A DNA stretch of 64,000 nt from Eledone cirrhosa (taxonomy: Eukaryota): the NCBI GenBank assembly GCA_964016885.1, contig OZ024744.1, positions 43,276,001-43,340,000 on the forward strand, given 5' to 3'. The notes beneath the pieces are model-generated. The model was given only the letters and a program-made list of their open reading frames with translations, did not search any database and was not told the DNA's origin. This document shows, one piece after another, positions 1 to 64,000 of the stretch (positions within the stretch are counted from its first letter, which is position 1; each line of letters opens with the position of its first letter). Made by a program: the position numbers and the translations under genes.

Positions 1-34
1 GAAGCAATGCGAGGGGACTGTGTAATATGGTCAC
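1..34 (-). CDS. Partial exon X1 (cut by the window edge): ..DHITQSPRIA..
   Basis: Same sequence as the X1 exon at 1719-1778; acceptor AG corresponds to plus-strand CT at 35-36. Confidence 0.65.
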   Translation of the reverse strand, partial: MTILHSPLALL

Positions 35-3000
35 CTAGAATATATAAACAAAATCATAGTAAACCTACATGTATATATACAAATAACATTACAAATACAG
101 GAAACAGTTATTAGATTTATTATCTCTGATATATACATATATACACCAGGTCCAAACATATATGGACCAAACTCCTACTGCCACTGCCATTTATATATAT
201 ATATTTATATATAGTGAAAGGATTCAGGACGCCAACTACTTAGATCCGTAAATATACATTTACTACTAAATTTTCTATAATCATGGCAACAGTCCTAATA
301 AAGCAAATTTATTCTTACATACACACACACAGAGATTGCACACTCACAAACTCACACTCACACAAACACAAACAGGGCTCACACAAACTCAAAAAAGCAT
401 CACCGGTGAAACACACCCAAACAGGTACACAATGAATTAATATACAACCCAATATACCTATATGTATACATCAACATACACATAATACCAACATCACTTC
501 ACTTATATATGTACACACAATTTTATTCAATGGGTCCACCTAACACATTACATAAACTTAGAATGTATACAGATATACAATATAACGTCAATTTGATATT
601 AATGTTGAAACACGTGTAATAGTTTTCTGTACTAACTGGTAGGAATCGGTTTGAAATACAACTTACTTTCTTTTGATCCACCTCTTATGTGTGTGCCTGA
701 GTCAGAGACAAGGATCTCTACAGGAGTCACACCTGGAAAAATATACAGAAGAAAAGAATAATAAAAGCTAGAAGGCTTTCTTGAGAAGAGTTTGTTGTCA
801 AGTTGAAGAAAGGGTAGAATGAGTTGTCATTTGTTTAATCAACTAGATCAAATTATACGGTTTGTTCTCTCAAGGACATGCTTACTTTTCCCACAAATCT
901 AAAACTTACAAAAGGAGTAAAGTGTGGTTAGTCTTGAATTATGAGAGAAACATTCTACAGTTTCCTACTGGTCCTTAAAATCAGATTTATATAGTGGTTT
1001 ACCAAATATTTAGGGTACTGGCAGATGTAGTGGAGAAGAGGATGCAGCATATGAACAATGAAGGGTGACAAGAAATTGTGAAGAACTGTAGGATAAAATT
1101 TGATAAAGAAGAGAATACTGATCTCTGAAATAATTCAATCTAACTCAATGAATCTAGTGTAACATTTATCTTCTCATTTGAATCACATGTAATGTCATTC
1201 TTTCTCAGTTATCTCTGATAATGCCCTAAAAAAGTCTAGCTATACTTTTGTCATCATTAAAAGGTCTTTGAGGAAGTCAATAAAATGTTTATTCTGGATT
1301 ATTTTATGGAGGTTGTAATAGAGAGTTTGATATTGTTGACTGAATTAAGTAGTTATAAATTTACTGTTGAAAACCTAAATAAGTTACTGAATAACTTATT
1401 ACATGATGTTTAAATTATAACTTACGCTTTTGAGAAGTTTCAGGCTTCATTGCAGCACTGGGAGGGTACACGGTAATATGGTCACCTAGAATATATAAAC
1501 AACATCATAGTAAACCTACATGTATATATATAAAAAACATTACAAATACATGGAATCAGTTATTAGATTGATTATCTCTGATATATAGATATATACACCA
1601 GGTGCAAAGACATATGGACCAAACTCCCACTGTCCCTCGCATATATATATATTTATATATAGAGAGAATGGATAAATTACTGAATAACTTATTAGATGAT
1701 GTTCAAACTATAACTTACCCTTTTTAGTTGATTTTGCCTCCATTGAAGCAATGCGAGGGGACTGTGTAATATGGTCACCTAGAATATATAAACAAAATCA
1801 TAGTAAACCTACATGTATATATACAAATAACATTACAAATACAGGAAACAGTTATTAGATTTATTATCTCTGATATATACATATATACACCAGGTCCAAA
1901 CATATATGGACCAAACTCCTACTGCCACTGCCATTTATATATATATATTTATATATAGTGAAAGGATTCAGGACGCCAACTACTTAGATCCGTAAATATA
2001 CATTTACTACTAAATTTTCTATAATCATGGCAACAGTCCTAATAAAGCAAATTTATTCTTACATACACACACACAGAGATTGCACACTCACAAACTCACA
2101 CTCACACAAACACAAACAGGGCTCACACAAACTCAAAAAAGCATCACCGGTGAAACACACCCAAACAGGTACACAATGAATTAATATACAACCCAATATA
2201 CCTATATGTATACATCAACATACACATAATACCAACATCACTTCACTTATATATGTACACACAATTTTATTCAATGGGTCCACCTAACACATTACATAAA
2301 CTTAGAATGTATACAGATATACAATATAACGTCAATTTGATATTAATGTTGAAACACGTGTAATAGTTTTCTGTACTAAATGGTAGGAATCGGTTTGAAA
2401 TACAACTTACTTTCTTTTGATCCACCTCTTATGTGTGTGCCTGAGTCAGAGACAAGGATCTCTACAGGAGTCACACCTGGAAAAATATACAGAAGAAAAG
2501 AATAATAAAAGCTAGAAGGCTTTCTTGAGAAGAGTTTGTTGTCAAGTTGAAGAAAGGGTAGAATGAGTTGTCATTTGTTTAATCAACTAGATCAAATTAT
2601 ACGGTTTGTTCTCTCAAGGACATGCTTACTTTTCCCACAAATCTAAAACTTACAAAAGGAGTAAAGTGTGGTTAGTCTTGAATTATGAGAGAAACATTCT
2701 ACAGTTTCCTACTGGTCCTTAAAATCAGATTTATATAGTGGTTTACCAAATATTTAGGGTACTGGCAGATGTAGTGGAGAAGAGGATGCAGCATATGAAC
2801 AATGAAGGGTGACAAGAAATTGTGAAGAACTGTAGGATAAAATCTTGATAAAGAAGAGAATACTGATCTCTGAAATAATTCAATCTAACTCAATGAATCT
2901 AGTGTAACATTTATCTTCTCATTTGAATCACATGTAATGTCATTCTTTCTCAGTTATCTCTGATAATGCCCTAAAAAAGTCTAGCTATACTTTTGTCATC

Positions 3001-3385
3001 ATTAAAAGGTCTTTGAGGAAGTCAATAAAATGTTTATTCTGGATTATTTTATGGAGGTTGTAATAGAGAGTTTGATATTGTTGACTGAATTAAGTAGTTA
3101 TAAATTTACTGTTGAAAACCTAAATAAGTTACTGAATAACTTATTACATGATGTTTAAATTATAACTTACGCTTTTGAGAAGTTTCAGGCTTCATTGCAG
3201 CACTGGGAGGGTACACGGTAATATGGTCACCTAGAATATATAAATAACATCATAGTAAACCTACATGTATATATATAAAAAACATTACAAATACATGGAA
3301 TCAGTTATTAGATTGATTATCTCTGATATATAGATATATACACCAGGTGCAAAGACATATGGACCAAACTCCCACTGTCCCTCGC

Positions 3386-3448
<63 letters not shown>

Positions 3449-5171
3449 GAGAGAATGGATAAATTACTGAATAACTTATTAGATGATGTTCAAACTATAA
3501 CTTACCCTTTTTAGTTGATTTTGCCTCCATTGAAGCAATGCGAGGGGACTGTGTAATATGGTCACCTAGAATATATAAACAAAATCATAGTAAACCTACA
3601 TGTATATATACAAATAACATTACAAATACAGGAAACAGTTATTAGATTTATTATCTCTGATATATACATATATACACCAGGTCCAAACATATATGGACCA
3701 AACTCCTACTGCCACTGCCATTTATATATATATATTTATATATAGTGAAAGGATTCAGGACGCCAACTACTTAGATCCGTAAATATACATTTACTACTAA
3801 ATTTTCTATAATCATGGCAACAGTCCTAATAAAGCAAATTTATTCTTACATACACACACACAGAGATTGCACACTCACAAACTCACACTCACACAAACAC
3901 AAACAGGGCTCACACACACTCAAAAAAGCATCACCGGTGAAACACACCCAAACAGGTACACAATGAATTAATATACAACCCAATATACCTATATGTATAC
4001 ATCAACATACACATAATACCAACATCACTTCACTTATATATGTACACACAATTTTATTCAATGGGTCCACCTAACACATTACATAAACTTAGAATGTATA
4101 CAGATATACAATATAACGTCAATTTGATATTAATGTTGAAACACGTGTAATAGTTTTCTGTACTAACTGGTAGGAATCGGTTTGAAATACAACTTACTTT
4201 CTTTTGATCCACCTCTTATGTGTGTGCCTGAGTCAGAGACAAGGATCTCTACAGGAGTCACACCTGGAAAAATATACAGAAGAAAAGAATAATAAAAGCT
4301 AGAAGGCTTTCTTGAGAAGAGTTTGTTGTCAAGTTGAAGAAAGGGTAGAATGAGTTGTCATTTGTTTAATCAACTAGATCAAATTATACGGTTTGTTCTC
4401 TCAAGGACATGCTTACTTTTCCCACAAATCTAAAACTTACAAAAGGAGTAAAGTGTGGTTAGTCTTGAATTATGAGAGAAACATTCTACAGTTTCCTACT
4501 GGTCCTTAAAATCAGATTTATATAGTGGTTTACCAAATATTTAGGGTACTGGCAGATGTAGTGGAGAAGAGGATGCAGCATATGAACAATGAAGGGTGAC
4601 AAGAAATTGTGAAGAACTGTAGGATAAAATTTGATAAAGAAGAGAATACTGATCTCTGAAATAATTCAATCTAACTCAATGAATCTAGTGTAACATTTAT
4701 CTTCTCATTTGAATCACATGTAATGTCATTCTTTCTCAGTTATCTCTGATAATGCCCTAAAAAAGTCTAGCTATACTTTTGTCATCATTAAAAAGTCTTT
4801 GAGGAAGTCAATAAAATGTTTATTCTGGATTATTTTATGGAGGTTGTAATAGAGAGTTTGATATTGTTGACTGAATTAAGTAGTTATAAATTTACTGTTG
4901 AAAACCTAAATAAGTTACTGAATAACTTATTACATGATGTTTAAATTATAACTTACGCTTTTGAGAAGTTTCAGGCTTCATTGCAGCACTGGGAGGGTAC
5001 ACGGTAATATGGTCACCTAGAATATATAAATAACATCATAGTAAACCTACATGTATATATATAAAAAACATTACAAATACATGGAATCAGTTATTAGATT
5101 GATTATCTCTGATATATAGATATATACACCAGGTGCAAAGACATATGGACCAAACTCCCACTGTCCCTCGC

Positions 5172-5234
<63 letters not shown>

Positions 5235-6944
5235 GAGAGAATGGATAAATTACTGAATAACTTATTAGATGATGTTCAAACTATAACTTACCCTTTTTAG
5301 TTGATTTTGCCTCCATTGAAGCAATGCGAGGGGACTGTGTAATATGGTCACCTAGAATATATAAACAAAATCATAGTAAACCTACATGTATATATACAAA
5401 TAACATTACAAATACAGGAAACAGTTATTAGATTTATTATCTCTGATATATACATATATACACCAGGTCCAAACATATATGGACCAAACTCCTACTGCCA
5501 CTGCCATTTATATATATATATTTATATATAGTGAAAGGATTCAGGACGCCAACTACTTAGATCCGTAAATATACATTTACTACTAAATTTTTTATAATCA
5601 TGGCAACAGTCCTAATAAAGCAAATTTATTCTTACATACACACACACAGAGATTGCACACTCACACAAACACAAACAGGGCTCACACACACTCAAAAAAG
5701 CATCACCGGTGAAACACACCCAAACAGTTACACAATGAATTAATATACAACCCAATATACCTATATGTATACATCAACATACACATAATACCAACATCAC
5801 TTCACTTATATATGTACACACAATTTTATTCAATGGGTCCACCTAACACATTACATAAACTTAGAATGTATACAGATATACAATATAACGTCAATTTGAT
5901 ATTAATGTTGAAACACGTGTAATAGTTTTCTGTACTAACTGGTAGGAATCGGTTTGAAATACAACTTACTTTCTTTTGATCCACCTCTTATGTGTGTGCC
6001 TGAGTCAGAGACAAGGATCTCTACAGGAGTCACACCTGGAAAAATATACAGAAGAAAAGAATAATAAAAGCTAGAAGGCTTTCTTGAGAAGAGTTTGTTG
6101 TCAAGTTGAAGAAAGGGTAGAATGAGTTGTCATTTGTTTAATCAACTAGATCAAATTATACGGTTTCTTCTCTCAAGGACATGCTTACTTTTCCCACAAA
6201 TCTAAAACTTACAAAAGGAGTAAAGTGTGGTTAGTCTTGAATTATGAGAGAAACATTCTACAGTTTCCTACTGGTCCTTAAAATCAGATTTATATAGTGG
6301 TTTACCAAATATTTAGGGTACTGGCAGATGTAGTGGAGAAGAGGATGCAGCATATGAACAATGAAGGGTGACAAGAAATTGTGAAGAACTGTAGGATAAA
6401 ATCTTGATAAAGAAGAGAATACTGATCTCTGAAATAATTCAATCTAACTCAATGAATCTAGTGTAACATTTATCTTCTCATTTGAATCACATGTAATGTC
6501 ATTCTTTCTCAGTTATCTCTGATAATGCCCTAAAAAAGTCTAGCTATACTTTTGTCATCATTAAAAGGTCTTTGAGGAAGTCAATAAAATGTTTATTCTG
6601 GATTATTTTATGGAGGTTGTAATAGAGAGTTTGATATTGTTGACTGAATTAAGTAGTTATAAATTTACTGTTGAAAACCTAAATAAGTTACTGAATAACT
6701 TATTACATGATGTTTAAATTATAACTTACGCTTTTGAGAAGTTTCAGGCTTCATTGCAGCACTGGGAGGGTACACGGTAATATGGTCACCTAGAATATAT
6801 AAATAACATCATAGTAAACCTACATGTATATATATAAAAAACATTACAAATACATGGAATCAGTTATTAGATTGATTATCTCTGATATATAGATATATAC
6901 ACCAGGTGCAAAGACATATGGACCAAACTCCCACTGTCCCTCGC

Positions 6945-7009
<65 letters not shown>

Positions 7010-8732
7010 GAGAGAATGGATAAATTACTGAATAACTTATTAGATGATGTTCAAACTATAACTTACCCTTTTTAGTTGATTTTGCCTCCATTGAAGCAAT
7101 GCGAGGGGACTGTGTAATATGGTCACCTAGAATATATAAACAAAATCATAGTAAACCTACATGTATATATACAAATAACATTACAAATACAGGAAACAGT
7201 TATTAGATTTATTATCTCTGATATATACATATATACACCAGGTCCAAACATATATGGACCAAACTCCTACTGCCACTGCCATTTATATATATATATTTAT
7301 ATATAGTGAAAGGATTCAGGACGCCAACTACTTAGATCCGTAAATATACATTTACTACTAAATTTTCTATAATCATGGCAACAGTCCTAATAAAGCAAAT
7401 TTATTCTTACATACACACACACAGAGATTGCACACTCACAAACTCACACTCACACAAACACAAACAGGGCTCACACACACTCAAAAAAGCATCACCGGTG
7501 AAACACACCCAAACAGGTACACAATGAATTAATATACAACCCAATATACCTATATGTATACATCAACATACACATAATACCAACATCACTTCACTTATAT
7601 ATGTACACACAATTTTATTCAATGGGTCCACCTAACACATTACATAAACTTAGAATGTATACAGATATACAATATAACGTCAATTTGATATTAATGTTGA
7701 AACACGTGTAATAGTTTTCTGTACTAACTGGTAGGAATCGGTTTGAAATACAACTTACTTTCTTTTGATCCACCTCTTATGTGTGTGCCTGAGTCAGAGA
7801 CAAGGATCTCTACAGGAGTCACACCTGGAAAAATATACAGAAGAAAAGAATAATAAAAGCTAGAAGGCTTTCTTGAGAAGAGTTTGTTGTCAAGTTGAAG
7901 AAAGGGTAGAATGAGTTGTCATTTGTTTAATCAACTAGATCAAATTATACGGTTTGTTCTCTCAAGGACATGCTTACTTTTCCCACAAATCTAAAACTTA
8001 CAAAAGGAGTAAAGTGTGGTTAGTCTTGAATTATGAGAGAAACATTCTACAGTTTCCTACTGGTCCTTAAAATCAGATTTATATAGTGGTTTACCAAATA
8101 TTTAGGGTACTGGCAGATGTAGTGGAGAAGAGGATGCAGCATATGAACAATGAAGGGTGACAAGAAATTGTGAAGAACTGTAGGATAAAATTTGATAAAG
8201 AAGAGAATACTGATCTCTGAAATAATTCAATCTAACTCAATGAATCTAGTGTAACATTTATCTTCTCATTTGAATCACATGTAATGTCATTCTTTCTCAG
8301 TTATCTCTGATAATGCCCTAAAAAAGTCTAGCTATACTTTTGTCATCATTAAAAGGTCTTTGAGGAAGTCAATAAAATGTTTATTCTGGATTATTTTATG
8401 GAGGTTGTAATAGAGAGTTTGATATTGTTGACTGAATTAAGTAGTTATAAATTTACTGTTGAAAACCTAAATAAGTTACTGAATAACTTATTACATGATG
8501 TTTAAATTATAACTTACGCTTTTGAGAAGTTTCAGGCTTCATTGCAGCACTGGGAGGGTACACGGTAATATGGTCACCTAGAATATATAAATAACATCAT
8601 AGTAAACCTACATGTATATATATAAAAAACATTACAAATACATGGAATCAGTTATTAGATTGATTATCTCTGATATATAGATATATACACCAGGTGCAAA
8701 GACATATGGACCAAACTCCCACTGTCCCTCGC

Positions 8733-8795
<63 letters not shown>

Positions 8796-10504
8796 GAGAG
8801 AATGGATAAATTACTGAATAACTTATTAGATGATGTTCAAACTATAACTTACCCTTTTTAGTTGATTTTGCCTCCATTGAAGCAATGCGAGGGGACTGTG
8901 TAATATGGTCACCTAGAATATATAAACAAAATCATAGTAAACCTACATGTATATATACAAATAACATTACAAATACAGGAAACAGTTATTAGATTTATTA
9001 TCTCTGATATATACATATATACACCAGGTCCAAACATATATGGACCAAACTCCTACTGCCACTGCCATTTATATATATATATTTATATATAGTGAAAGGA
9101 TTCAGGACGCCAACTACTTAGATCCGTAAATATACATTTACTACTAAATTTTCTATAATCATGGCAACAGTCCTAATAAAGCAAATTTATTCTTACATAC
9201 ACACACACAGAGATTGCACACTCACACAAACACAAACAGGGCTCACACACACTCAAAAAAGCATCACCGGTGAAACACACCCAAACAGTTACACAATGAA
9301 TTAATATACAACCCAATATACCTATATGTATACATCAACATACACATAATACCAACATCACTTCACTTATATATGTACACACAATTTTATTCAATGGGTC
9401 CACCTAACACATTACATAAACTTAGAATGTATACAGATATACAATATAACGTCAATTTGATATTAATGTTGAAACACGTGTAATAGTTTTCTGTACTAAC
9501 TGGTAGGAATCGGTTTGAAATACAACTTACTTTCTTTTGATCCACCTCTTATGTGTGTGCCTGAGTCAGAGACAAGGATCTCTACAGGAGTCACACCTGG
9601 AAAAATATACAGAAGAAAAGAATAATAAAAGCTAGAAGGCTTTCTTGAGAAGAGTTTGTTGTCAAGTTGAAGAAAGGGTAGAATGAGTTGTCATTTGTTT
9701 AATCAACTAGATCAAATTATACGGTTTGTTCTCTCAAGGACATGCTTACTTTTCCCACAAATCTAAAACTTACAAAAGGAGTAAAGTGTGGTTAGTCTTG
9801 AATTATGAGAGAAACATTCTACAGTTTCCTACTGGTCCTTAAAATCAGATTTATATAGTGGTTTACCAAATATTTAGGGTACTGGCAGATGTAGTGGAGA
9901 AGAGGATGCAGCATATGAACAATGAAGGGTGACAAGAAATTGTGAAGAACTGTAGGATAAAATTTGATAAAGAAGAGAATACTGATCTCTGAAATAATTC
10001 AATCTAACTCAATGAATCTAGTGTAACATTTATCTTCTCATTTGAATCACATGTAATGTCATTCTTTCTCAGTTATCTCTGATAATGCCCTAAAAAAGTC
10101 TAGCTATACTTTTGTCATCATTAAAAGGTCTTTGAGGAAGTCAATAAAATGTTTATTCTGGATTATTTTATGGAGGTTGTAATAGAGAGTTTGATATTGT
10201 TGACTGAATTAAGTAGTTATAAATTTACTGTTGAAAACCTAAATAAGTTACTGAATAACTTATTACATGATGTTTAAATTATAACTTACGCTTTTGAGAA
10301 GTTTCAGGCTTCATTGCAGCACTGGGAGGGTACACGGTAATATGGTCACCTAGAATATATAAATAACATCATAGTAAACCTACATGTATATATATAAAAA
10401 ACATTACAAATACATGGAATCAGTTATTAGATTGATTATCTCTGATATATAGATATATACACCAGGTGCAAAGACATATGGACCAAACTCCCACTGTCCC
10501 TCGC

Positions 10505-10567
<63 letters not shown>

Positions 10568-12276
10568 GAGAGAATGGATAAATTACTGAATAACTTATTA
10601 GATGATGTTCAAACTATAACTTACCCTTTTTAGTTGATTTTGCCTCCATTGAAGCAATGCGAGGGGACTGTGTAATATGGTCACCTAGAATATATAAACA
10701 AAATCATAGTAAACCTACATGTATATATACAAATAACATTACAAATACAGGAAACAGTTATTAGATTTATTATCTCTGATATATACATATATACACCAGG
10801 TCCAAACATATATGGACCAAACTCCTACTGCCACTGCCATTTATATATATATATTTATATATAGTGAAAGGATTCAGGACGCCAACTACTTAGATCCGTA
10901 AATATACATTTACTACTAAATTTTCTATAATCATGGCAACAGTCCTAATAAAGCAAATTTATTCTTACATACACACACACAGAGATTGCACACTCACACA
11001 AACACAAACAGGGCTCACACACACTCAAAAAAGCATCACCGGTGAAACACACCCAAACAGTTACACAATGAATTAATATACAACCCAATATACCTATATG
11101 TATACATCAACATACACATAATACCAACATCACTTCACTTATATATGTACACACAATTTTATTCAATGGGTCCACCTAACACATTACATAAACTTAGAAT
11201 GTATACAGATATACAATATAACGTCAATTTGATATTAATGTTGAAACACGTGTAATAGTTTTCTGTACTAACTGGTAGGAATCGGTTTGAAATACAACTT
11301 ACTTTCTTTTGATCCACCTCTTATGTGTGTGCCTGAGTCAGAGACAAGGATCTCTACAGGAGTCACACCTGGAAAAATATACAGAAGAAAAGAATAATAA
11401 AAGCTAGAAGGCTTTCTTGAGAAGAGTTTGTTGTCAAGTTGAAGAAAGGGTAGAATGAGTTGTCATTTGTTTAATCAACTAGATCAAATTATACGGTTTG
11501 TTCTCTCAAGGACATGCTTACTTTTCCCACAAATCTAAAACTTACAAAAGGAGTAAAGTGTGGTTAGTCTTGAATTATGAGAGAAACATTCTACAGTTTC
11601 CTACTGGTCCTTAAAATCAGATTTATATAGTGGTTTACCAAATATTTAGGGTACTGGCAGATGTAGTGGAGAAGAGGATGCAGCATATGAACAATGAAGG
11701 GTGACAAGAAATTGTGAAGAACTGTAGGATAAAATTTGATAAAGAAGAGAATACTGATCTCTGAAATAATTCAATCTAACTCAATGAATCTAGTGTAACA
11801 TTTATCTTCTCATTTGAATCACATGTAATGTCATTCTTTCTCAGTTATCTCTGATAATGCCCTAAAAAAGTCTAGCTATACTTTTGTCATCATTAAAAGG
11901 TCTTTGAGGAAGTCAATAAAATGTTTATTCTGGATTATTTTATGGAGGTTGTAATAGAGAGTTTGATATTGTTGACTGAATTAAGTAGTTATAAATTTAC
12001 TGTTGAAAACCTAAATAAGTTACTGAATAACTTATTACATGATGTTTAAATTATAACTTACGCTTTTGAGAAGTTTCAGGCTTCATTGCAGCACTGGGAG
12101 GGTACACGGTAATATGGTCACCTAGAATATATAAACAACATCATAGTAAACCTACATGTATATATATAAAAAACATTACAAATACATGGAATCAGTTATT
12201 AGATTGATTATCTCTGATATATAGATATATACACCAGGTGCAAAGACATATGGACCAAACTCCCACTGTCCCTCGC

Positions 12277-12339
<63 letters not shown>

Positions 12340-15300
12340 GAGAGAATGGATAAATTACTGAATAACTTATTAGATGATGTTCAAACTATAACTTACCCTT
12401 TTTAGTTGATTTTGCCTCCATTGAAGCAATGCGAGGGGACTGTGTAATATGGTCACCTAGAATATATAAACAAAATCATAGTAAACCTACATGTATATAT
12501 ACAAATAACATTACAAATACAGGAAACAGTTATTAGATTTATTATCTCTGATATATACATATATACACCAGGTCCAAACATATATGGACCAAACTCCTAC
12601 TGCCACTGCCATTTATATATATATATTTATATATAGTGAAAGGATTCAGGACGCCAACTACTTAGATCCGTAAATATACATTTACTACTAAATTTTCTAT
12701 AATCATGGCAACAGTCCTAATAAAGCAAATTTATTCTTACATACACACACACAGAGATTGCACACTCACAAACTCACACTCACACAAACACAAACAGGGC
12801 TCACACACACTCAAAAAAGCATCACCGGTGAAACACACCCAAACAGGTACACAATGAATTAATATACAACCCAATATACCTATATGTATACATCAACATA
12901 CACATAATACCAACATCACTTCACTTATATATGTACACACAATTTTATTCAATGGGTCCACCTAACACATTACATAAACTTAGAATGTATACAGATATAC
13001 AATATAACGTCAATTTGATATTAATGTTGAAACACGTGTAATAGTTTTCTGTACTAACTGGTAGGAATCGGTTTGAAATACAACTTACTTTCTTTTGATC
13101 CACCTCTTATGTGTGTGCCTGAGTCAGAGACAAGGATCTCTACAGGAGTCACACCTGGAAAAATATACAGAAGAAAAGAATAATAAAAGCTAGAAGGCTT
13201 TCTTGAGAAGAGTTTGTTGTCAAGTTGAAGAAAGGGTAGAATGAGTTGTCATTTGTTTAATCAACTAGATCAAATTATACGGTTTGTTCTCTCAAGGACA
13301 TGCTTACTTTTCCCACAAATCTAAAACTTACAAAAGGAGTAAAGTGTGGTTAGTCTTGAATTATGAGAGAAACATTCTACAGTTTCCTACTGGTCCTTAA
13401 AATCAGATTTATATAGTGGTTTACCAAATATTTAGGGTACTGGCAGATGTAGTGGAGAAGAGGATGCAGCATATGAACAATGAAGGGTGACAAGAAATTG
13501 TGAAGAACTGTAGGATAAAATTTGATAAAGAAGAGAATACTGATCTCTGAAATAATTCAATCTAACTCAATGAATCTAGTGTAACATTTATCTTCTCATT
13601 TGAATCACATGTAATGTCATTCTTTCTCAGTTATCTCTGATAATGCCCTAAAAAAGTCAAGCTATACTTTTGTCATCATTAAAAGGTCTTTGAGGAAGTC
13701 AATAAAATGTTTATTCTGGATTATTTTATGGAGGTTGTAATAGAGAGTTTGATATTGTTGACTGAATTAAGTAGTTATAAATTTACTGTTGAAAACCTAA
13801 ATAAGTTACTGAATAACTTATTACATGATGTTTAAATTATAACTTACGCTTTTGAGAAGTTTCAGGCTTCATTGCAGCACTGGGAGGGTACACGGTAATA
13901 TGGTCACCTAGAATATATAAACAACATCATAGTAAACCTACATGTATATATATAAAAAACATTACAAATACATGGAATCAGTTATTAGATTGATTATCTC
14001 TGATATATAGATATATACACCAGGTGCAAAGACATATGGACCAAACTCCCACTGTCCCTCGCATATATATATATTTATATATAGAGAGAATGGATAAATT
14101 ACTGAATAACTTATTAGATGATGTTCAAACTATAACTTACCCTTTTTAGTTGATTTTGCCTCCATTGAAGCAATGCGAGGGGACTGTGTAATATGGTCAC
14201 CTAGAATATATAAACAAAATCATAGTAAACCTACATGTATATATACAAATAACATTACAAATACAGGAAACAGTTATTAGATTTATTATCTCTGATATAT
14301 ACATATATACACCAGGTCCAAACATATATGGACCAAACTCCTACTGCCACTGCCATTTATATATATATATTTATATATAGTGAAAGGATTCAGGACGCCA
14401 ACTACTTAGATCCGTAAATATACATTTACTACTAAATTTTCTATAATCATGGCAACAGTCCTAATAAAGCAAATTTATTCTTACATACACACACACAGAG
14501 ATTGCACACTCACAAACTCACACTCACACAAACACAAACAGGGCTCACACACACTCAAAAAAGCATCACCGGTGAAACACACCCAAACAGGTACACAATG
14601 AATTAATATACAACCCAATATACCTATATGTATACATCAACATACACATAATACCAACATCACTTCACTTATATATGTACACACAATTTTATTCAATGGG
14701 TCCACCTAACACATTACATAAACTTAGAATGTATACAGATATACAATATAACGTCAATTTGATATTAATGTTGAAACACGTGTAATAGTTTTCTGTACTA
14801 ACTGGTAGGAATCGGTTTGAAATACAACTTACTTTCTTTTGATCCACCTCTTATGTGTGTGCCTGAGTCAGAGACAAGGATCTCTACAGGAGTCACACCT
14901 GGAAAAATATACAGAAGAAAAGAATAATAAAAGCTAGAAGGCTTTCTTGAGAAGAGTTTGTTGTCAAGTTGAAGAAAGGGTAGAATGAGTTGTCATTTGT
15001 TTAATCAACTAGATCAAATTATACGGTTTGTTCTCTCAAGGACATGCTTACTTTTCCCACAAATCTAAAACTTACAAAAGGAGTAAAGTGTGGTTAGTCT
15101 TGAATTATGAGAGAAACATTCTACAGTTTCCTACTGGTCCTTAAAATCAGATTTATATAGTGGTTTACCAAATATTTAGGGTACTGGCAGATGTAGTGGA
15201 GAAGAGGATGCAGCATATGAACAATGAAGGGTGACAAGAAATTGTGAAGAACTGTAGGATAAAATTTGATAAAGAAGAGAATACTGATCTCTGAAATAAT

Positions 15301-15806
15301 TCAATCTAACTCAATGAATCTAGTGTAACATTTATCTTCTCATTTGAATCACATGTAATGTCATTCTTTCTCAGTTATCTCTGATAATGCCCTAAAAAAG
15401 TCTAGCTATACTTTTGTCATCATTAAAAAGTCTTTGAGGAAGTCAATAAAATGTTTATTCTGGATTATTTTATGGAGGTTGTAATAGAGAGTTTGATATT
15501 GTTGACTGAATTAAGTAGTTATAAATTTACTGTTGAAAACCTAAATAAGTTACTGAATAACTTATTACATGATGTTTAAATTATAACTTACGCTTTTGAG
15601 AAGTTTCAGGCTTCATTGCAGCACTGGGAGGGTACACGGTAATATGGTCACCTAGAATATATAAATAACATCATAGTAAACCTACATGTATATATATAAA
15701 AAACATTACAAATACATGGAATCAGTTATTAGATTGATTATCTCTGATATATAGATATATACACCAGGTGCAAAGACATATGGACCAAACTCCCACTGTC
15801 CCTCGC

Positions 15807-15869
<63 letters not shown>

Positions 15870-17578
15870 GAGAGAATGGATAAATTACTGAATAACTTAT
15901 TAGATGATGTTCAAACTATAACTTACCCTTTTTAGTTGATTTTGCCTCCATTGAAGCAATGCGAGGGGACTGTGTAATATGGTCACCTAGAATATATAAA
16001 CAAAATCATAGTAAACCTACATGTATATATACAAATAACATTACAAATACAGGAAACAGTTATTAGATTTATTATCTCTGATATATACATATATACACCA
16101 GGTCCAAACATATATGGACCAAACTCCTACTGCCACTGCCATTTATATATATATATTTATATATAGTGAAAGGATTCAGGACGCCAACTACTTAGATCCG
16201 TAAATATACATTTACTACTAAATTTTTTATAATCATGGCAACAGTCCTAATAAAGCAAATTTATTCTTACATACACACACACAGAGATTGCACACTCACA
16301 CAAACACAAACAGGGCTCACACACACTCAAAAAAGCATCACCGGTGAAACACACCCAAACAGTTACACAATGAATTAATATACAACCCAATATACCTATA
16401 TGTATACATCAACATACACATAATACCAACATCACTTCACTTATATATGTACACACAATTTTATTCAATGGGTCCACCTAACACATTACATAAACTTAGA
16501 ATGTATACAGATATACAATATAACGTCAATTTGATATTAATGTTGAAACACGTGTAATAGTTTTCTGTACTAACTGGTAGGAATCGGTTTGAAATACAAC
16601 TTACTTTCTTTTGATCCACCTCTTATGTGTGTGCCTGAGTCAGAGACAAGGATCTCTACAGGAGTCACACCTGGAAAAATATACAGAAGAAAAGAATAAT
16701 AAAAGCTAGAAGGCTTTCTTGAGAAGAGTTTGTTGTCAAGTTGAAGAAAGGGTAGAATGAGTTGTCATTTGTTTAATCAACTAGATCAAATTATACGGTT
16801 TGTTCTCTCAAGGACATGCTTACTTTTCCCACAAATCTAAAACTTACAAAAGGAGTAAAGTGTGGTTAGTCTTGAATTATGAGAGAAACATTCTACAGTT
16901 TCCTACTGGTCCTTAAAATCAGATTTATATAGTGGTTTACCAAATATTTAGGGTACTGGCAGATGTAGTGGAGAAGAGGATGCAGCATATGAACAATGAA
17001 GGGTGACAAGAAATTGTGAAGAACTGTAGGATAAAATTTGATAAAGAAGAGAATACTGATCTCTGAAATAATTCAATCTAACTCAATGAATCTAGTGTAA
17101 CATTTATCTTCTCATTTGAATCACATGTAATGTCATTCTTTCTCAGTTATCTCTGATAATGCCCTAAAAAAGTCTAGCTATACTTTTGTCATCATTAAAA
17201 GGTCTTTGAGGAAGTCAATAAAATGTTTATTCTGGATTATTTTATGGAGGTTGTAATAGAGAGTTTGATATTGTTGACTGAATTAAGTAGTTATAAATTT
17301 ACTGTTGAAAACCTAAATAAGTTACTGAATAACTTATTACATGATGTTTAAATTATAACTTACGCTTTTGAGAAGTTTCAGGCTTCATTGCAGCACTGGG
17401 AGGGTACACGGTAATATGGTCACCTAGAATATATAAACAACATCATAGTAAACCTACATGTATATATATAAAAAACATTACAAATACATGGAATCAGTTA
17501 TTAGATTGATTATCTCTGATATATAGATATATACACCAGGTGCAAAGACATATGGACCAAACTCCCACTGTCCCTCGC

Positions 17579-17641
<63 letters not shown>

Positions 17642-20600
17642 GAGAGAATGGATAAATTACTGAATAACTTATTAGATGATGTTCAAACTATAACTTACCC
17701 TTTTTAGTTGATTTTGCCTCCATTGAAGCAATGCGAGGGGACTGTGTAATATGGTCACCTAGAATATATAAACAAAATCATAGTAAACCTACATGTATAT
17801 ATACAAATAACATTACAAATACAGGAAACAGTTATTAGATTTATTATCTCTGATATATACATATATACACCAGGTCCAAACATATATGGACCAAACTCCT
17901 ACTGCCACTGCCATTTATATATATATATTTATATATAGTGAAAGGATTCAGGACGCCAACTACTTAGATCCGTAAATATACATTTACTACTAAATTTTCT
18001 ATAATCATGGCAACAGTCCTAATAAAGCAAATTTATTCTTACATACACACACACAGAGATTGCACACTCACAAACTCACACTCACACAAACACAAACAGG
18101 GCTCACACACACTCAAAAAAGCATCACCGGTGAAACACACCCAAACAGGTACACAATGAATTAATATACAACCCAATATACCTATATGTATACATCAACA
18201 TACACATAATACCAACATCACTTCACTTATATATGTACACACAATTTTATTCAATGGGTCCACCTAACACATTACATAAACTTAGAATGTATACAGATAT
18301 ACAATATAACGTCAATTTGATATTAATGTTGAAACACGTGTAATAGTTTTCTGTACTAACTGGTAGGAATCGGTTTGAAATACAACTTACTTTCTTTTGA
18401 TCCACCTCTTATGTGTGTGCCTGAGTCAGAGACAAGGATCTCTACAGGAGTCACACCTGGAAAAATATACAGAAGAAAAGAATAATAAAAGCTAGAAGGC
18501 TTTCTTGAGAAGAGTTTGTTGTCAAGTTGAAGAAAGGGTAGAATGAGTTGTCATTTGTTTAATCAACTAGATCAAATTATACGGTTTGTTCTCTCAAGGA
18601 CATGCTTACTTTTCCCACAAATCTAAAACTTACAAAAGGAGTAAAGTGTGGTTAGTCTTGAATTATGAGAGAAACATTCTACAGTTTCCTACTGGTCCTT
18701 AAAATCAGATTTATATAGTGGTTTACCAAATATTTAGGGTACTGGCAGATGTAGTGGAGAAGAGGATGCAGCATATGAACAATGAAGGGTGACAAGAAAT
18801 TGTGAAGAACTGTAGGATAAAATTTGATAAAGAAGAGAATACTGATCTCTGAAATAATTCAATCTAACTCAATGAATCTAGTGTAACATTTATCTTCTCA
18901 TTTGAATCACATGTAATGTCATTCTTTCTCAGTTATCTCTGATAATGCCCTAAAAAAGTCTAGCTATACTTTTGTCATCATTAAAAGGTCTTTGAGGAAG
19001 TCAATAAAATGTTTATTCTGGATTATTTTATGGAGGTTGTAATAGAGAGTTTGATATTGTTGACTGAATTAAGTAGTTATAAATTTACTGTTGAAAACCT
19101 AAATAAGTTACTGAATAACTTATTACATGATGTTTAAATTATAACTTACGCTTTTGAGAAGTTTCAGGCTTCATTGCAGCACTGGGAGGGTACACGGTAA
19201 TATGGTCACCTAGAATATATAAACAACATCATAGTAAACCTACATGTATATATATAAAAAACATTACAAATACATGGAATCAGTTATTAGATTGATTATC
19301 TCTGATATATAGATATATACACCAGGTGCAAAGACATATGGACCAAACTCCCACTGTCCCTCGCATATATATATATTTATATATAGAGAGAATGGATAAA
19401 TTACTGAATAACTTATTAGATGATGTTCAAACTATAACTTACCCTTTTTAGTTGATTTTGCCTCCATTGAAGCAATGCGAGGGGACTGTGTAATATGGTC
19501 ACCTAGAATATATAAACAAAATCATAGTAAACCTACATGTATATATACAAATAACATTACAAATACAGGAAACAGTTATTAGATTTATTATCTCTGATAT
19601 ATACATATATACACCAGGTCCAAACATATATGGACCAAACTCCTACTGCCACTGCCATTTATATATATATATTTATATATAGTGAAAGGATTCAGGACGC
19701 CAACTACTTAGATCCGTAAATATACATTTACTACTAAATTTTCTATAATCATGGCAACAGTCCTAATAAAGCAAATTTATTCTTACATACACACACACAG
19801 AGATTGCACACTCACAAACTCACACTCACACAAACACAAACAGGGCTCACACACACTCAAAAAAGCATCACCGGTGAAACACACCCAAACAGGTACACAA
19901 TGAATTAATATACAACCCAATATACCTATATGTATACATCAACATACACATAATACCAACATCACTTCACTTATATATGTACACACAATTTTATTCAATG
20001 GGTCCACCTAACACATTACATAAACTTAGAATGTATACAGATATACAATATAACGTCAATTTGATATTAATGTTGAAACACGTGTAATAGTTTTCTGTAC
20101 TAACTGGTAGGAATCGGTTTGAAATACAACTTACTTTCTTTTGATCCACCTCTTATGTGTGTGCCTGAGTCAGAGACAAGGATCTCTACAGGAGTCACAC
20201 CTGGAAAAATATACAGAAGAAAAGAATAATAAAAGCTAGAAGGCTTTCTTGAGAAGAGTTTGTTGTCAAGTTGAAGAAAGGGTAGAATGAGTTGTCATTT
20301 GTTTAATCAACTAGATCAAATTATACGGTTTGTTCTCTCAAGGACATGCTTACTTTTCCCACAAATCTAAAACTTACAAAAGGAGTAAAGTGTGGTTAGT
20401 CTTGAATTATGAGAGAAACATTCTACAGTTTCCTACTGGTCCTTAAAATCAGATTTATATAGTGGTTTACCAAATATTTAGGGTACTGGCAGATGTAGTG
20501 GAGAAGAGGATGCAGCATATGAACAATGAAGGGTGACAAGAAATTGTGAAGAACTGTAGGATAAAATTTGATAAAGAAGAGAATACTGATCTCTGAAATA

Positions 20601-22852
20601 ATTCAATCTAACTCAATGAATCTAGTGTAACATTTATCTTCTCATTTGAATCACATGTAATGTCATTCTTTCTCAGTTATCTCTGATAATGCCCTAAAAA
20701 AGTCTAGCTATACTTTTGTCATCATTAAAAGGTCTTTGAGGAAGTCAATAAAATGTTTATTCTGGATTATTTTATGGAGGTTGTAATAGAGAGTTTGATA
20801 TTGTTGACTGAATTAAGTAGTTATAAATTTACTGTTGAAAACCTAAATAAGTTACTGAATAACTTATTACATGATGTTTAAATTATAACTTACGCTTTTG
20901 AGAAGTTTCAGGCTTCATTGCAGCACTGGGAGGGTACACGGTAATATGGTCACCTAGAATATATAAACAACATCATAGTAAACCTACATGTATATATATA
21001 AAAAACATTACAAATACATGGAATCAGTTATTAGATTGATTATCTCTGATATATAGATATATACACCAGGTGCAAAGACATATGGACCAAACTCCCACTG
21101 TCCCTCGCATATATATATATTTATATATAGAGAGAATGGATAAATTACTGAATAACTTATTAGATGATGTTCAAACTATAACTTACCCTTTTTAGTTGAT
21201 TTTGCCTCCATTGAAGCAATGCGAGGGGACTGTGTAATATGGTCACCTAGAATATATAAACAAAATCATAGTAAACCTACATGTATATATACAAATAACA
21301 TTACAAATACAGGAAACAGTTATTAGATTTATTATCTCTGATATATACATATATACACCAGGTCCAAACATATATGGACCAAACTCCTACTGCCACTGCC
21401 ATTTATATATATATATTTATATATAGTGAAAGGATTCAGGACGCCAACTACTTAGATCCGTAAATATACATTTACTACTAAATTTTCTATAATCATGGCA
21501 ACAGTCCTAATAAAGCAAATTTATTCTTACATACACACACACAGAGATTGCACACTCACAAACTCACACTCACACAAACACAAACAGGGCTCACACAAAC
21601 TCAAAAAAGCATCACCGGTGAAACACACCCAAACAGGTACACAATGAATTAATATACAACCCAATATACCTATATGTATACATCAACATACACATAATAC
21701 CAACATCACTTCACTTATATATGTACACACAATTTTATTCAATGGGTCCACCTAACACATTACATAAACTTAGAATGTATACAGATATACAATATAACGT
21801 CAATTTGATATTAATGTTGAAACACGTGTAATAGTTTTCTGTACTAACTGGTAGGAATCGGTTTGAAATACAACTTACTTTCTTTTGATCCACCTCTTAT
21901 GTGTGTGCCTGAGTCAGAGACAAGGATCTCTACAGGAGTCACACCTGGAAAAATATACAGAAGAAAAGAATAATAAAAGCTAGAAGGCTTTCTTGAGAAG
22001 AGTTTGTTGTCAAGTTGAAGAAAGGGTAGAATGAGTTGTCATTTGTTTAATCAACTAGATCAAATTATACGGTTTGTTCTCTCAAGGACATGCTTACTTT
22101 TCCCACAAATCTAAAACTTACAAAAGGAGTAAAGTGTGGTTAGTCTTGAATTATGAGAGAAACATTCTACAGTTTCCTACTGGTCCTTAAAATCAGATTT
22201 ATATAGTGGTTTACCAAATATTTAGGGTACTGGCAGATGTAGTGGAGAAGAGGATGCAGCATATGAACAATGAAGGGTGACAAGAAATTGTGAAGAACTG
22301 TAGGATAAAATTTGATAAAGAAGAGAATACTGATCTCTGAAATAATTCAATCTAACTCAATGAATCTAGTGTAACATTTATCTTCTCATTTGAATCACAT
22401 GTAATGTCATTCTTTCTCAGTTATCTCTGATAATGCCCTAAAAAAGTCTAGCTATACTTTTGTCATCATTAAAAGGTCTTTGAGGAAGTCAATAAAATGT
22501 TTATTCTGGATTATTTTATGGAGGTTGTAATAGAGAGTTTGATATTGTTGACTGAATTAAGTAGTTATAAATTTACTGTTGAAAACCTAAATAAGTTACT
22601 GAATAACTTATTACATGATGTTTAAATTATAACTTACGCTTTTGAGAAGTTTCAGGCTTCATTGCAGCACTGGGAGGGTACACGGTAATATGGTCACCTA
22701 GAATATATAAACAACATCATAGTAAACCTACATGTATATATATAAAAAACATTACAAATACATGGAATCAGTTATTAGATTGATTATCTCTGATATATAG
22801 ATATATACACCAGGTGCAAAGACATATGGACCAAACTCCCACTGTCCCTCGC

Positions 22853-22917
<65 letters not shown>

Positions 22918-25900
22918 GAGAGAATGGATAAATTACTGAATAACTTATTAGATGATGTTCAAACTATAACTTACCCTTTTTAGTTGATTTTGCCTCCATT
23001 GAAGCAATGCGAGGGGACTGTGTAATATGGTCACCTAGAATATATAAACAAAATCATAGTAAACCTACATGTATATATACAAATAACATTACAAATACAG
23101 GAAACAGTTATTAGATTTATTATCTCTGATATATACATATATACACCAGGTCCAAACATATATGGACCAAACTCCTACTGCCACTGCCATTTATATATAT
23201 ATATTTATATATAGTGAAAGGATTCAGGACGCCAACTACTTAGATCCGTAAATATACATTTACTACTAAATTTTCTATAATCATGGCAACAGTCCTAATA
23301 AAGCAAATTTATTCTTACATACACACACACAGAGATTGCACACTCACAAACTCACACTCACACAAACACAAACAGGGCTCACACACACTCAAAAAAGCAT
23401 CACCGGTGAAACACACCCAAACAGGTACACAATGAATTAATATACAACCCAATATACCTATATGTATACATCAACATACACATAATACCAACATCACTTC
23501 ACTTATATATGTACACACAATTTTATTCAATGGGTCCACCTAACACATTACATAAACTTAGAATGTATACAGATATACAATATAACGTCAATTTGATATT
23601 AATGTTGAAACACGTGTAATAGTTTTCTGTACTAACTGGTAGGAATCGGTTTGAAATACAACTTACTTTCTTTTGATCCACCTCTTATGTGTGTGCCTGA
23701 GTCAGAGACAAGGATCTCTACAGGAGTCACACCTGGAAAAATATACAGAAGAAAAGAATAATAAAAGCTAGAAGGCTTTCTTGAGAAGAGTTTGTTGTCA
23801 AGTTGAAGAAAGGGTAGAATGAGTTGTCATTTGTTTAATCAACTAGATCAAATTATACGGTTTGTTCTCTCAAGGACATGCTTACTTTTCCCACAAATCT
23901 AAAACTTACAAAAGGAGTAAAGTGTGGTTAGTCTTGAATTATGAGAGAAACATTCTACAGTTTCCTACTGGTCCTTAAAATCAGATTTATATAGTGGTTT
24001 ACCAAATATTTAGGGTACTGGCAGATGTAGTGGAGAAGAGGATGCAGCATATGAACAATGAAGGGTGACAAGAAATTGTGAAGAACTGTAGGATAAAATT
24101 TGATAAAGAAGAGAATACTGATCTCTGAAATAATTCAATCTAACTCAATGAATCTAGTGTAACATTTATCTTCTCATTTGAATCACATGTAATGTCATTC
24201 TTTCTCAGTTATCTCTGATAATGCCCTAAAAAAGTCTAGCTATACTTTTGTCATCATTAAAAGGTCTTTGAGGAAGTCAATAAAATGTTTATTCTGGATT
24301 ATTTTATGGAGGTTGTAATAGAGAGTTTGATATTGTTGACTGAATTAAGTAGTTATAAATTTACTGTTGAAAACCTAAATAAGTTACTGAATAACTTATT
24401 ACATGATGTTTAAATTATAACTTACGCTTTTGAGAAGTTTCAGGCTTCATTGCAGCACTGGGAGGGTACACGGTAATATGGTCACCTAGAATATATAAAC
24501 AACATCATAGTAAACCTACATGTATATATATAAAAAACATTACAAATACATGGAATCAGTTATTAGATTGATTATCTCTGATATATAGATATATACACCA
24601 GGTGCAAAGACATATGGACCAAACTCCCACTGTCCCTCGCATATATATATATTTATATATAGAGAGAATGGATAAATTACTGAATAACTTATTAGATGAT
24701 GTTCAAACTATAACTTACCCTTTTTAGTTGATTTTGCCTCCATTGAAGCAATGCGAGGGGACTGTGTAATATGGTCACCTAGAATATATAAACAAAATCA
24801 TAGTAAACCTACATGTATATATACAAATAACATTACAAATACAGGAAACAGTTATTAGATTTATTATCTCTGATATATACATATATACACCAGGTCCAAA
24901 CATATATGGACCAAACTCCTACTGCCACTGCCATTTATATATATATATTTATATATAGTGAAAGGATTCAGGACGCCAACTACTTAGATCCGTAAATATA
25001 CATTTACTACTAAATTTTCTATAATCATGGCAACAGTCCTAATAAAGCAAATTTATTCTTACATACACACACACAGAGATTGCACACTCACAAACTCACA
25101 CTCACACAAACACAAACAGGGCTCACACAAACTCAAAAAAGCATCACCGGTGAAACACACCCAAACAGGTACACAATGAATTAATATACAACCCAATATA
25201 CCTATATGTATACATCAACATACACATAATACCAACATCACTTCACTTATATATGTACACACAATTTTATTCAATGGGTCCACCTAACACATTACATAAA
25301 CTTAGAATGTATACAGATATACAATATAACGTCAATTTGATATTAATGTTGAAACACGTGTAATAGTTTTCTGTACTAACTGGTAGGAATCGGTTTGAAA
25401 TACAACTTACTTTCTTTTGATCCACCTCTTATGTGTGTGCCTGAGTCAGAGACAAGGATCTCTACAGGAGTCACACCTGGAAAAATATACAGAAGAAAAG
25501 AATAATAAAAGCTAGAAGGCTTTCTTGAGAAGAGTTTGTTGTCAAGTTGAAGAAAGGGTAGAATGAGTTGTCATTTGTTTAATCAACTAGATCAAATTAT
25601 ACGGTTTGTTCTCTCAAGGACATGCTTACTTTTCCCACAAATCTAAAACTTACAAAAGGAGTAAAGTGTGGTTAGTCTTGAATTATGAGAGAAACATTCT
25701 ACAGTTTCCTACTGGTCCTTAAAATCAGATTTATATAGTGGTTTACCAAATATTTAGGGTACTGGCAGATGTAGTGGAGAAGAGGATGCAGCATATGAAC
25801 AATGAAGGGTGACAAGAAATTGTGAAGAACTGTAGGATAAAATTTGATAAAGAAGAGAATACTGATCTCTGAAATAATTCAATCTAACTCAATGAATCTA

Positions 25901-28125
25901 GTGTAACATTTATCTTCTCATTTGAATCACATGTAATGTCATTCTTTCTCAGTTATCTCTGATAATGCCCTAAAAAAGTCTAGCTATACTTTTGTCATCA
26001 TTAAAAGGTCTTTGAGGAAGTCAATAAAATGTTTATTCTGGATTATTTTATGGAGGTTGTAATAGAGAGTTTGATATTGTTGACTGAATTAAGTAGTTAT
26101 AAATTTACTGTTGAAAACCTAAATAAGTTACTGAATAACTTATTACATGATGTTTAAATTATAACTTACGCTTTTGAGAAGTTTCAGGCTTCATTGCAGC
26201 ACTGGGAGGGTACACGGTAATATGGTCACCTAGAATATATAAACAACATCATAGTAAACCTACATGTATATATATAAAAAACATTACAAATACATGGAAT
26301 CAGTTATTAGATTGATTATCTCTGATATATAGATATATACACCAGGTGCAAAGACATATGGACCAAACTCCCACTGTCCCTCGCATATATATATATTTAT
26401 ATATAGAGAGAATGGATAAATTACTGAATAACTTATTAGATGATGTTCAAACTATAACTTACCCTTTTTAGTTGATTTTGCCTCCATTGAAGCAATGCGA
26501 GGGGACTGTGTAATATGGTCACCTAGAATATATAAACAAAATCATAGTAAACCTACATGTATATATACAAATAACATTACAAATACAGGAAACAGTTATT
26601 AGATTTATTATCTCTGATATATACATATATACACCAGGTCCAAACATATATGGACCAAACTCCTACTGCCACTGCCATTTATATATATATATTTATATAT
26701 AGTGAAAGGATTCAGGACGCCAACTACTTAGATCCGTAAATATACATTTACTACTAAATTTTCTATAATCATGGCAACAGTCCTAATAAAGCAAATTTAT
26801 TCTTACATACACACACACAGAGATTGCACACTCACAAACTCACACTCACACAAACACAAACAGGGCTCACACAAACTCAAAAAAGCATCACCGGTGAAAC
26901 ACACCCAAACAGGTACACAATGAATTAATATACAACCCAATATACCTATATGTATACATCAACATACACATAATACCAACATCACTTCACTTATATATGT
27001 ACACACAATTTTATTCAATGGGTCCACCTAACACATTACATAAACTTAGAATGTATACAGATATACAATATAACGTCAATTTGATATTAATGTTGAAACA
27101 CGTGTAATAGTTTTCTGTACTAAATGGTAGGAATCGGTTTGAAATACAACTTACTTTCTTTTGATCCACCTCTTATGTGTGTGCCTGAGTCAGAGACAAG
27201 GATCTCTACAGGAGTCACACCTGGAAAAATATACAGAAGAAAAGAATAATAAAAGCTAGAAGGCTTTCTTGAGAAGAGTTTGTTGTCAAGTTGAAGAAAG
27301 GGTAGAATGAGTTGTCATTTGTTTAATCAACTAGATCAAATTATACGGTTTGTTCTCTCAAGGACATGCTTACTTTTCCCACAAATCTAAAACTTACAAA
27401 AGGAGTAAAGTGTGGTTAGTCTTGAATTATGAGAGAAACATTCTACAGTTTCCTACTGGTCCTTAAAATCAGATTTATATAGTGGTTTACCAAATATTTA
27501 GGGTACTGGCAGATGTAGTGGAGAAGAGGATGCAGCATATGAACAATGAAGGGTGACAAGAAATTGTGAAGAACTGTAGGATAAAATTTGATAAAGAAGA
27601 GAATACTGATCTCTGAAATAATTCAATCTAACTCAATGAATCTAGTGTAACATTTATCTTCTCATTTGAATCACATGTAATGTCATTCTTTCTCAGTTAT
27701 CTCTGATAATGCCCTAAAAAAGTCTAGCTATACTTTTGTCATCATTAAAAGGTCTTTGAGGAAGTCAATAAAATGTTTATTCTGGATTATTTTATGGAGG
27801 TTGTAATAGAGAGTTTGATATTGTTGACTGAATTAAGTAGTTATAAATTTACTGTTGAAAACCTAAATAAGTTACTGAATAACTTATTACATGATGTTTA
27901 AATTATAACTTACGCTTTTGAGAAGTTTCAGGCTTCATTGCAGCACTGGGAGGGTACACGGTAATATGGTCACCTAGAATATATAAATAACATCATAGTA
28001 AACCTACATGTATATATATAAAAAACATTACAAATACATGGAATCAGTTATTAGATTGATTATCTCTGATATATAGATATATACACCAGGTGCAAAGACA
28101 TATGGACCAAACTCCCACTGTCCCT

Positions 28126-28164
<39 letters not shown>

Positions 28165-32210: not shown

Positions 32211-32274
<64 letters not shown>

Positions 32275-33998: not shown

Positions 33999-34032
<34 letters not shown>

Positions 34033-39783: not shown

Positions 39784-39839
<56 letters not shown>

Positions 39840-43866: not shown

Positions 43867-43916
<50 letters not shown>

Positions 43917-54013: not shown

Positions 54014-54074
<61 letters not shown>

Positions 54075-58109: not shown

Positions 58110-58174
<65 letters not shown>

Positions 58175-59913: not shown

Positions 59914-59974
<61 letters not shown>

Positions 59975-63854: not shown

Positions 63855-64000
63855 CTAGAATATATAAACAACATCATAGTAAACCTACATGTATATATAT
63901 AAAAAACATTACAAATACATGGAATCAGTTATTAGATTGATTATCTCTGATATATAGATATATACACCAGGTGCAAAGACATATGGACCAAACTCCCACT

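Follow-up and report, generated by a model that had tools for sequence, protein, structure and literature searches.

Duplicated short exons more diverged than their flanking introns in a tandem array predicted to encode a mucin-like repeat protein

Introduction

Among the closest described systems are the polymorphic mucin genes of Schistosoma mansoni (SmPoMuc), in which a small exon and its flanking intron are described as repeated in tandem, in units of ~1 kb with microsatellites between them, and in which the introns are reported to be >93% identical while the exon types r1 and r2 differ (PMC2576457). The authors of that account propose that conversion is limited to the introns and that the exon differences are kept by selection, and they say the same of spider flagelliform silk (PMC2576457). 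Flag introns have been reported as more homogenised than Flag exons, and the MaSp2 genes of Argiope carry alternating homogenised introns, an arrangement that its authors report not having seen elsewhere (PMC9779670; also PMC1885213). The PTS domain of chicken Muc13 is described as P/T/S-rich and as having one 20-residue repeat per exon (PMC1552070), and the repeats of mammalian mucins as having near-neutral replacement rates outside T/S (PMC9417175). Comparators for positive selection are the snake SSP and venom genes and the schistosome micro-exon genes (MEG), with an intron divergence of 0.065 and a KA/KS of 1.74 given for snake SSP-1/2 (PMC6609765, PMC4350168, PMC10526429).

An excess of exon over intron divergence is not new in itself, having been described before in mucin genes of parasites and silk genes of spiders. 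The kringle repeats of human LPA and the ANKRD36-type genes are further multi-exon tandem units. The fully assembled array of the locus analysed here, with two layers of time (an old split between the predicted exons X1 and X2 and a recent split between unit types a and b) and a crossover caught in place, makes it a clean natural test case for telling intron homogenisation from positive selection.

Array architecture and predicted product

The window, i.e., the whole stretch of 64,000 nt that was analysed (1..64000, minus strand), is a tandem array of ~34 units of ~1.7-2.3 kb each with a GC content of 31%, and the array extends past both window ends. Each unit has the predicted exon order A-X1-X2 on the minus strand, and the window holds 100 whole predicted exon copies (34 A, 32 X1 and 34 X2) together with one extra exon-motif copy truncated by the window start. 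In one such unit predicted exon X2 lies at 1426..1485 (60 nt, with a CTAG acceptor, a GTAAGT donor and an open frame), its predicted paralogue X1 at 1719..1778 (60 nt) and predicted exon A at 2411..2476 (66 nt), all on the minus strand. A YAG acceptor and a GTAAGT donor are kept in 100/100 whole copies, all of phase 1-1, and the predicted exons have a GC content of 45% vs 30% in the introns. Spliced in order they yield 2068 codons with 0 stops, the other two frames having 136 and 166, although only 8 distinct exon sequences lie behind this frame, which is not equivalent to 100 independent tests.

In one unit, an unbiased scan for splice sites gave three open exons on the minus strand, of common phase, with lengths in multiples of three and with distinct donors, and 0 candidate exons on the plus strand; among 500 shuffled controls none reached three exons and 13 reached two. 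The segments that an earlier note on this DNA had taken for functional units do behave as functional exons would. The scan also marked internal alternative acceptors within exon A (2440-2411, minus; 30 nt, frame-preserving) and within X2 (1457-1426, minus; 32 nt, frame-shifting). Exon A was considered as a homologue of the X cassettes and rejected, the alignment score being 30-31 vs a shuffle mean of 26.

The predicted product consists of S 14.9%, T 10.3%, K 9.6% and P 8.6%, with no Cys and no Trp; S+T amount to 25%, alongside much K, E, I and V, and by this count its composition falls within that of mucin tandem repeats (>20% T+S plus proline; PMC9417175). No signal peptide or terminal domain was found in the window, the ends of the gene falling outside it. 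Judged from its predicted exons, a mucin-like repeat protein of great length, rich in Ser, Thr, Pro and Lys, is the likely product of the array. Intron structure and composition suggest an animal gene.

Homologue searches, in which the large protein sets were queried with exon A only (the X1 and X2 frames have just 29 codons, and short queries are weak), gave 0 Pfam families for 3/3 exon peptides, 8 candidates but none at E<=10 in a word-index protein search with the 64-codon frame around exon A, and a best ESM Atlas score of 0.80, inside the shuffled range; two DNA motifs had 0 matches in metagenome contigs. Four matches at E<=0.001 in phmmer, queried with 30 codons spanning exon A, were rejected as chance matches inflated by repeats: one to a HEAT-repeat protein, one to an MBG-domain protein and two to unnamed repeats. 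The result that no homologue was found, in searches made mainly with exon A, would suit a history without any selection on the exon difference, in which either an unconstrained, GC-richer segment mutates faster or the array is a non-coding satellite with splice-like motifs. Such a history is improbable to us: the three same-phase open exons of the scan, which no shuffle reproduced, and the AG and GTAAGT kept in every whole copy speak against it.

The exon-plus-intron units are homogenised across the ~34 copies, with type-a and type-b introns ~2% different. From 28000 to 64000 mostly two unit types alternate and form a six-exon higher-order repeat, and 1-28000 is of a single homogenised type. 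In layout the array is like SmPoMuc, the exon types differing more in their exons than in their introns (16/60 vs 14/189), whereas SmPoMuc, compared here by architecture alone, is described with one 27-nt exon (a 9-residue repeat) per unit and at most ~20 units per gene (PMC2576457), and the array has three exons per unit, of 60, 60 and 66 nt, and at least 34 units. The silk genes, as far as they are described, share with it iterated homogenised introns and a higher-order repeat marked off by the alternation of intron types (PMC9779670, PMC1885213), but their exons are long and Gly/Ala-rich, and here the exons are short and S/T/K/P-rich, with three intron types alternating and a six-exon higher-order unit. 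One repeat per exon and a P/T/S-rich domain are also common to the array and chicken Muc13 (PMC1552070); the latter is described with SEA and transmembrane domains and ~12 known repeats, and none of these domains is present in the window, where S+T is only a quarter of the residues. Short exons in multiples of three are shared with the MEG genes, but these are described as separate small genes with 10-20 distinct micro-exons, mostly of 15 nt (PMC10526429), and here 100 exons of three types, all of 60-66 nt, stand as near-identical units in one very long frame. By analogy, the gene would be one that works like the SmPoMuc and silk-type systems, and by exon size and number it is neither an SmPoMuc nor a MEG gene.

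Divergence between the duplicated exons

X1 and X2 go back to an old cassette duplication at 1385..1967 (blocks 1385-1673 and 1678-1967, offset 293, 85.9% identical), in agreement with the 293-bp duplication and the 16 differing exon nucleotides of the earlier note. A young repeat inserted independently in both introns was rejected as the source of the similarity, since homology is continuous through flank, exon and flank. The acceptor-side flank of X1 (1779..1935, minus) is homologous to 1486-1642 and differs from that of X2 by 10 substitutions and 1 gap in 147 nt; the donor-side flank of X2 (1380..1425, minus) is homologous to 1673-1718 and differs at 3/42 nt (4/46 nt). These counts match the 3/42 and ~11/147 given before. 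The X1-to-X2 intron (1486..1718, minus; 233 nt) is composed of the X1 donor flank, a TA run and the X2 acceptor flank.

In a formal alignment the exons differ at 16/60 nt and both flanks together at 14/189 (Fisher p=3.5e-4), and a test that allowed any 60-nt window to contain 16 of the 30 differences still gave p=0.007. The earlier claim that the exons have diverged 3-4 times more than their flanking introns holds against all flanks, but against the distal acceptor flank alone the excess is only 1.9-2.7-fold (p 0.007 to 0.12). The choice of flank length was rejected as a cause of the contrast, the excess persisting with flanks lengthened to 172+46 nt (p=0.002); with the splice-site cores left out p=0.001 was obtained. 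The first 13 exon bases are identical in X1 and X2, and the divergent zone comprises exon nt 14-60. The peptides differ in 12/20 residues, junction codon counted, as had been stated, and ACA/ACC is indeed the sole purely synonymous codon of this pair, but 3/16 nucleotide differences are synonymous, two of them lying in codons with a replacement as well. X1 and X2 resemble young paralogues among the snake SSP and venom genes in that the coding sequence has diverged further than the introns; those snake genes are described as encoding folded secreted domains.

Base composition was the other candidate cause. G/C sites of the introns mismatch at 16% vs 4% for A/T sites, which would favour a GC-richer segment mutating faster with no selection on the exon difference; however, the composition-corrected expectation is 5.8 exon differences and 16 were seen (p=1.4e-4), and composition was therefore rejected as the cause of the contrast.

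Silent and replacement changes

Two main explanations have to be weighed. According to the one to which we lean, tentatively and at slightly less than even confidence, the flanks have been slowed by recombination and splice-site constraint, and selection has kept the two peptides different. According to the other, which we regard as a serious possibility rather than as the expected course, the flanks are a fair clock that places the duplication ~7-10% ago, and replacements were driven at 2-4x the neutral rate in a burst of positive selection. The observations do not discriminate between them.

For the a-type pair, Nei-Gojobori counts are 3 silent changes per 13.8 sites and 13 replacements per 46.2 (dN/dS 1.38, p=0.74), and for the b-type pair 3 per 13.2 and 10 per 46.8 (dN/dS ~0.94 by proportions, p=1.0); over all 20 exon changes in the window, 17 are replacements and 3 silent (p=0.20). 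A silent divergence of about the same height as the replacement divergence counts for slowed flanks, and a dN/dS not above 1 counts against a burst of positive selection, as do silent sites above the flank rate, which predicts 0.6-1.2 silent changes where 3 were observed (p 0.03-0.11). A dN/dS of ~1 is also free of any signal of purifying selection on the peptide, as a neutral history would have it. In a likelihood comparison, with all flanks as yardstick, a rate common to the whole exon is favoured 3-9x over one for replacements only, and 1.3-2.6x with the distal intron as yardstick, a comparison that is weak with ~13.5 silent sites in all.

Other counts argue for the burst. Replacement divergence exceeds that of the flanks (13/46 vs 14/189, p=3e-4), with p=0.007 to 0.14 against the distal flank, and the exon variants within the array are 7/7 replacements where 74% are expected (p=0.125); DNA runs add M>I at 1741 and L>F at 2456 and bring this to 9/9 (p=0.07, from 40 of 107 variant rows). 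The exon differences comprise 2 transitions and 14 transversions, compared with 26 to 36 in introns (p=0.04), and such a transversion excess is not expected from neutral accumulation, so it also counts against slowed flanks. Among the exon variants of the array no stops or indels were found, which stands against a non-coding satellite though weakly by itself. The interpretation of the earlier note is partly upheld: positive selection as the cause of the contrast is not demonstrated, dN/dS not differing from 1 in either pair, but both main explanations make it likely that selection of some kind has acted on the peptide. In snake SSP-1/2, by comparison, KA/KS is above 1 (1.74), and the 1.38 of the array does not depart from 1.

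Old and recent changes can be set apart by way of the 12 haplotypes, in two main types (a and b), that the 66 X cassettes represent. Three of the 16 X1/X2 differences vary within the array, since at exon nt 42, 51 and 60 the two b-type exons agree, so that the b-type pair differs at 13/60 nt; by parsimony the a lineage gained four changes at these positions, all protein-altering. The last base of X1 and X2 (1719 and 1426, with their copies) depends on the type, being G/A in X1 and C/A in X2, and this difference alters the first residue across the next junction; A appears to be ancestral.

On the old X1/X2 branch the exon has 13/60 changes vs 9/189 in the flanks (p=2.4e-4), and on the recent branches the exons have 4/120 vs 10/378 in the same flanks (p=0.75). 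Because the recent branches show no exon excess, the contrast belongs to the old branch, although the difference between old and recent branches itself reaches only p=0.10, and selection acting on one copy among 34 would be diluted in such a comparison. The absence of a recent excess is a further point against the burst. Over the whole array, variable sites amount to 7/186 in exons vs 62/1469 in ungapped intron (p=1.0; the intron count omits the TA runs and an insertion described below), and exons that vary at the intron rate count for slowed flanks.

Intron flanks as a clock

One crossover between X1 and X2 acceptor flanks was caught in the window, at 50094..50713 (minus; 620 nt), in the one unit without X1. 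This chimeric intron is X1-type and matches the A-to-X1 intron up to -85, and from -71 it is X2-type and matches the X2 flank. Its structure marks it as the apparent product of an unequal crossover, in 1/99 introns and in a single assembly copy that could be an assembly error. It is the one unit that would document non-allelic recombination between exon types, and flanks that recombine are a difficulty for reading them as a neutral clock in the burst of selection. Gene conversion restricted to the introns, which the earlier note had offered as the alternative, gains direct support from this unit and has close precedents in SmPoMuc and flagelliform silk (PMC2576457), but, the chimera aside, no X1/X2 conversion patch was found in the other 11/12 cassette haplotypes, and the flank differences are not clumped (dispersion p=0.63).

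Differences between the X1 and X2 acceptor flanks thin out toward the exon (5,3,2,2,2,1 per 26 nt, p=0.011), and from -45 to +13 across the acceptor junction there is only one. Within the array, 4/267 sites at <=45 nt from a junction vary vs 58/1202 elsewhere in the intron, a constraint that depends on the window chosen (p=0.011 for 45 nt, 0.07 for 60 nt and 0.11 for 30 nt). The flanks are, therefore, probably not a fair clock. Against this, donor and acceptor flanks do not differ in similarity (3/42 vs 11/147, p=1.0), which slowed flanks could explain only with two tracts of equal age, whereas a burst of selection predicts the same age from both. The donor flank is a 46-nt island, well below the length of ~200 nt quoted for efficient conversion, shorter tracts having also been reported (PMC3924818).

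If the flanks were slowed, the history might have run as follows. One exon-intron cassette would have been copied to give X1 and X2; non-allelic recombination or conversion would then have made the intron flanks, along with the initial 13 bases of the exon, alike again, while sites within ~45 nt of the splice junctions would have been constrained; selection would have eliminated tracts that erased exon differences, or mismatches would have prevented them. An older age, ~22% at silent and replacement sites alike, would thus be kept in the exon, where purifying selection on the exact peptide would be slight, as in a glycosylated repeat of low complexity, and later unequal crossing-over would have amplified the whole A-X1-X2 unit. 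A general warning follows for comparable loci, namely that introns flanking duplicated cassettes are a poor neutral yardstick.

Related cassettes in DNA-run contigs

Contigs from DNA runs, which represent three runs of one sample and thus a single observation, possibly the source of the assembly itself, contain a low-depth contig that matches 1386-1425, continues with unaligned letters (60 nt by the record coordinates) and then matches 1779-1902 with 15 differences in 124. It is probably a third X-type cassette outside the window, in which similarity ends at the splice junction on either side, and no alignment of its 60 nt with X1 or X2 was obtained. The recurrence of the pattern agrees with a burst of positive selection but fits slowed flanks equally, because both need selection that keeps the exons different, and a purely neutral history does not predict it.

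The third cassette also bears on a further explanation, a young duplication (7%) in which one conversion event, with an older and more distant cassette of the same gene as donor, overwrote nt 14-60 of one exon. Such an event would account at once for silent and replacement divergence being equal, for the identity of the first 13 bases (p=0.01-0.03) and for the equal ages of both flanks, and more distant cassettes are present in the genome; but no donor was seen, the third cassette matching neither exon, and a pattern that recurs there calls for more than one event. We give this replacement of an exon segment little credence.

Alignment drop-outs from 1430 to 1507 and from 2417 to 2511, which lie over exons, were not counted as support, their sides being 24-25 nt and three other drop-outs being intronic. 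The joint from 2417 to 2511 has high depth and skips most of exon A, with a side of only 25 nt. One contig at ~88% identity is a diverged relative of the A cassette (2277-2641), and such relatives possibly represent a second array or a paralogous gene.

Implications and minor observations

If selection on the peptide is real, the product would be a candidate interface protein, fast-evolving and without known homologue. A more far-reaching reading, which we consider unlikely but worth stating, is that the array belongs to a giant, hitherto undescribed gene of >100 short symmetric exons. Strong, exon-confined selection would have diversified its family of cassettes, and the product would be a surface or secreted protein, combinatorial and polymorphic, at an interface between host and parasite or between gametes; unequal crossover, and possibly exon skipping, would change the number of repeats.

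A MITE-like foldback insertion of ~550 nt (one example at 29919..30447) occurs in the TA run of 8/32 X1-to-X2 introns, all of type b; the 7 further copies start, on the minus strand, at 34548, 42103, 46186, 48482, 52247, 56344 and 62244. A motif of this insertion had 0 matches in metagenome contigs. The insertion contains inverted repeats of 168 nt (97%) and of 46 nt (perfect). Finally, summed contig depth reached ~9,000-25,000 at 1562-1620, 1798-1915, 1975-2033, 2329-2387 and 3096-3129, short intron motifs that probably match genome-wide repeats.
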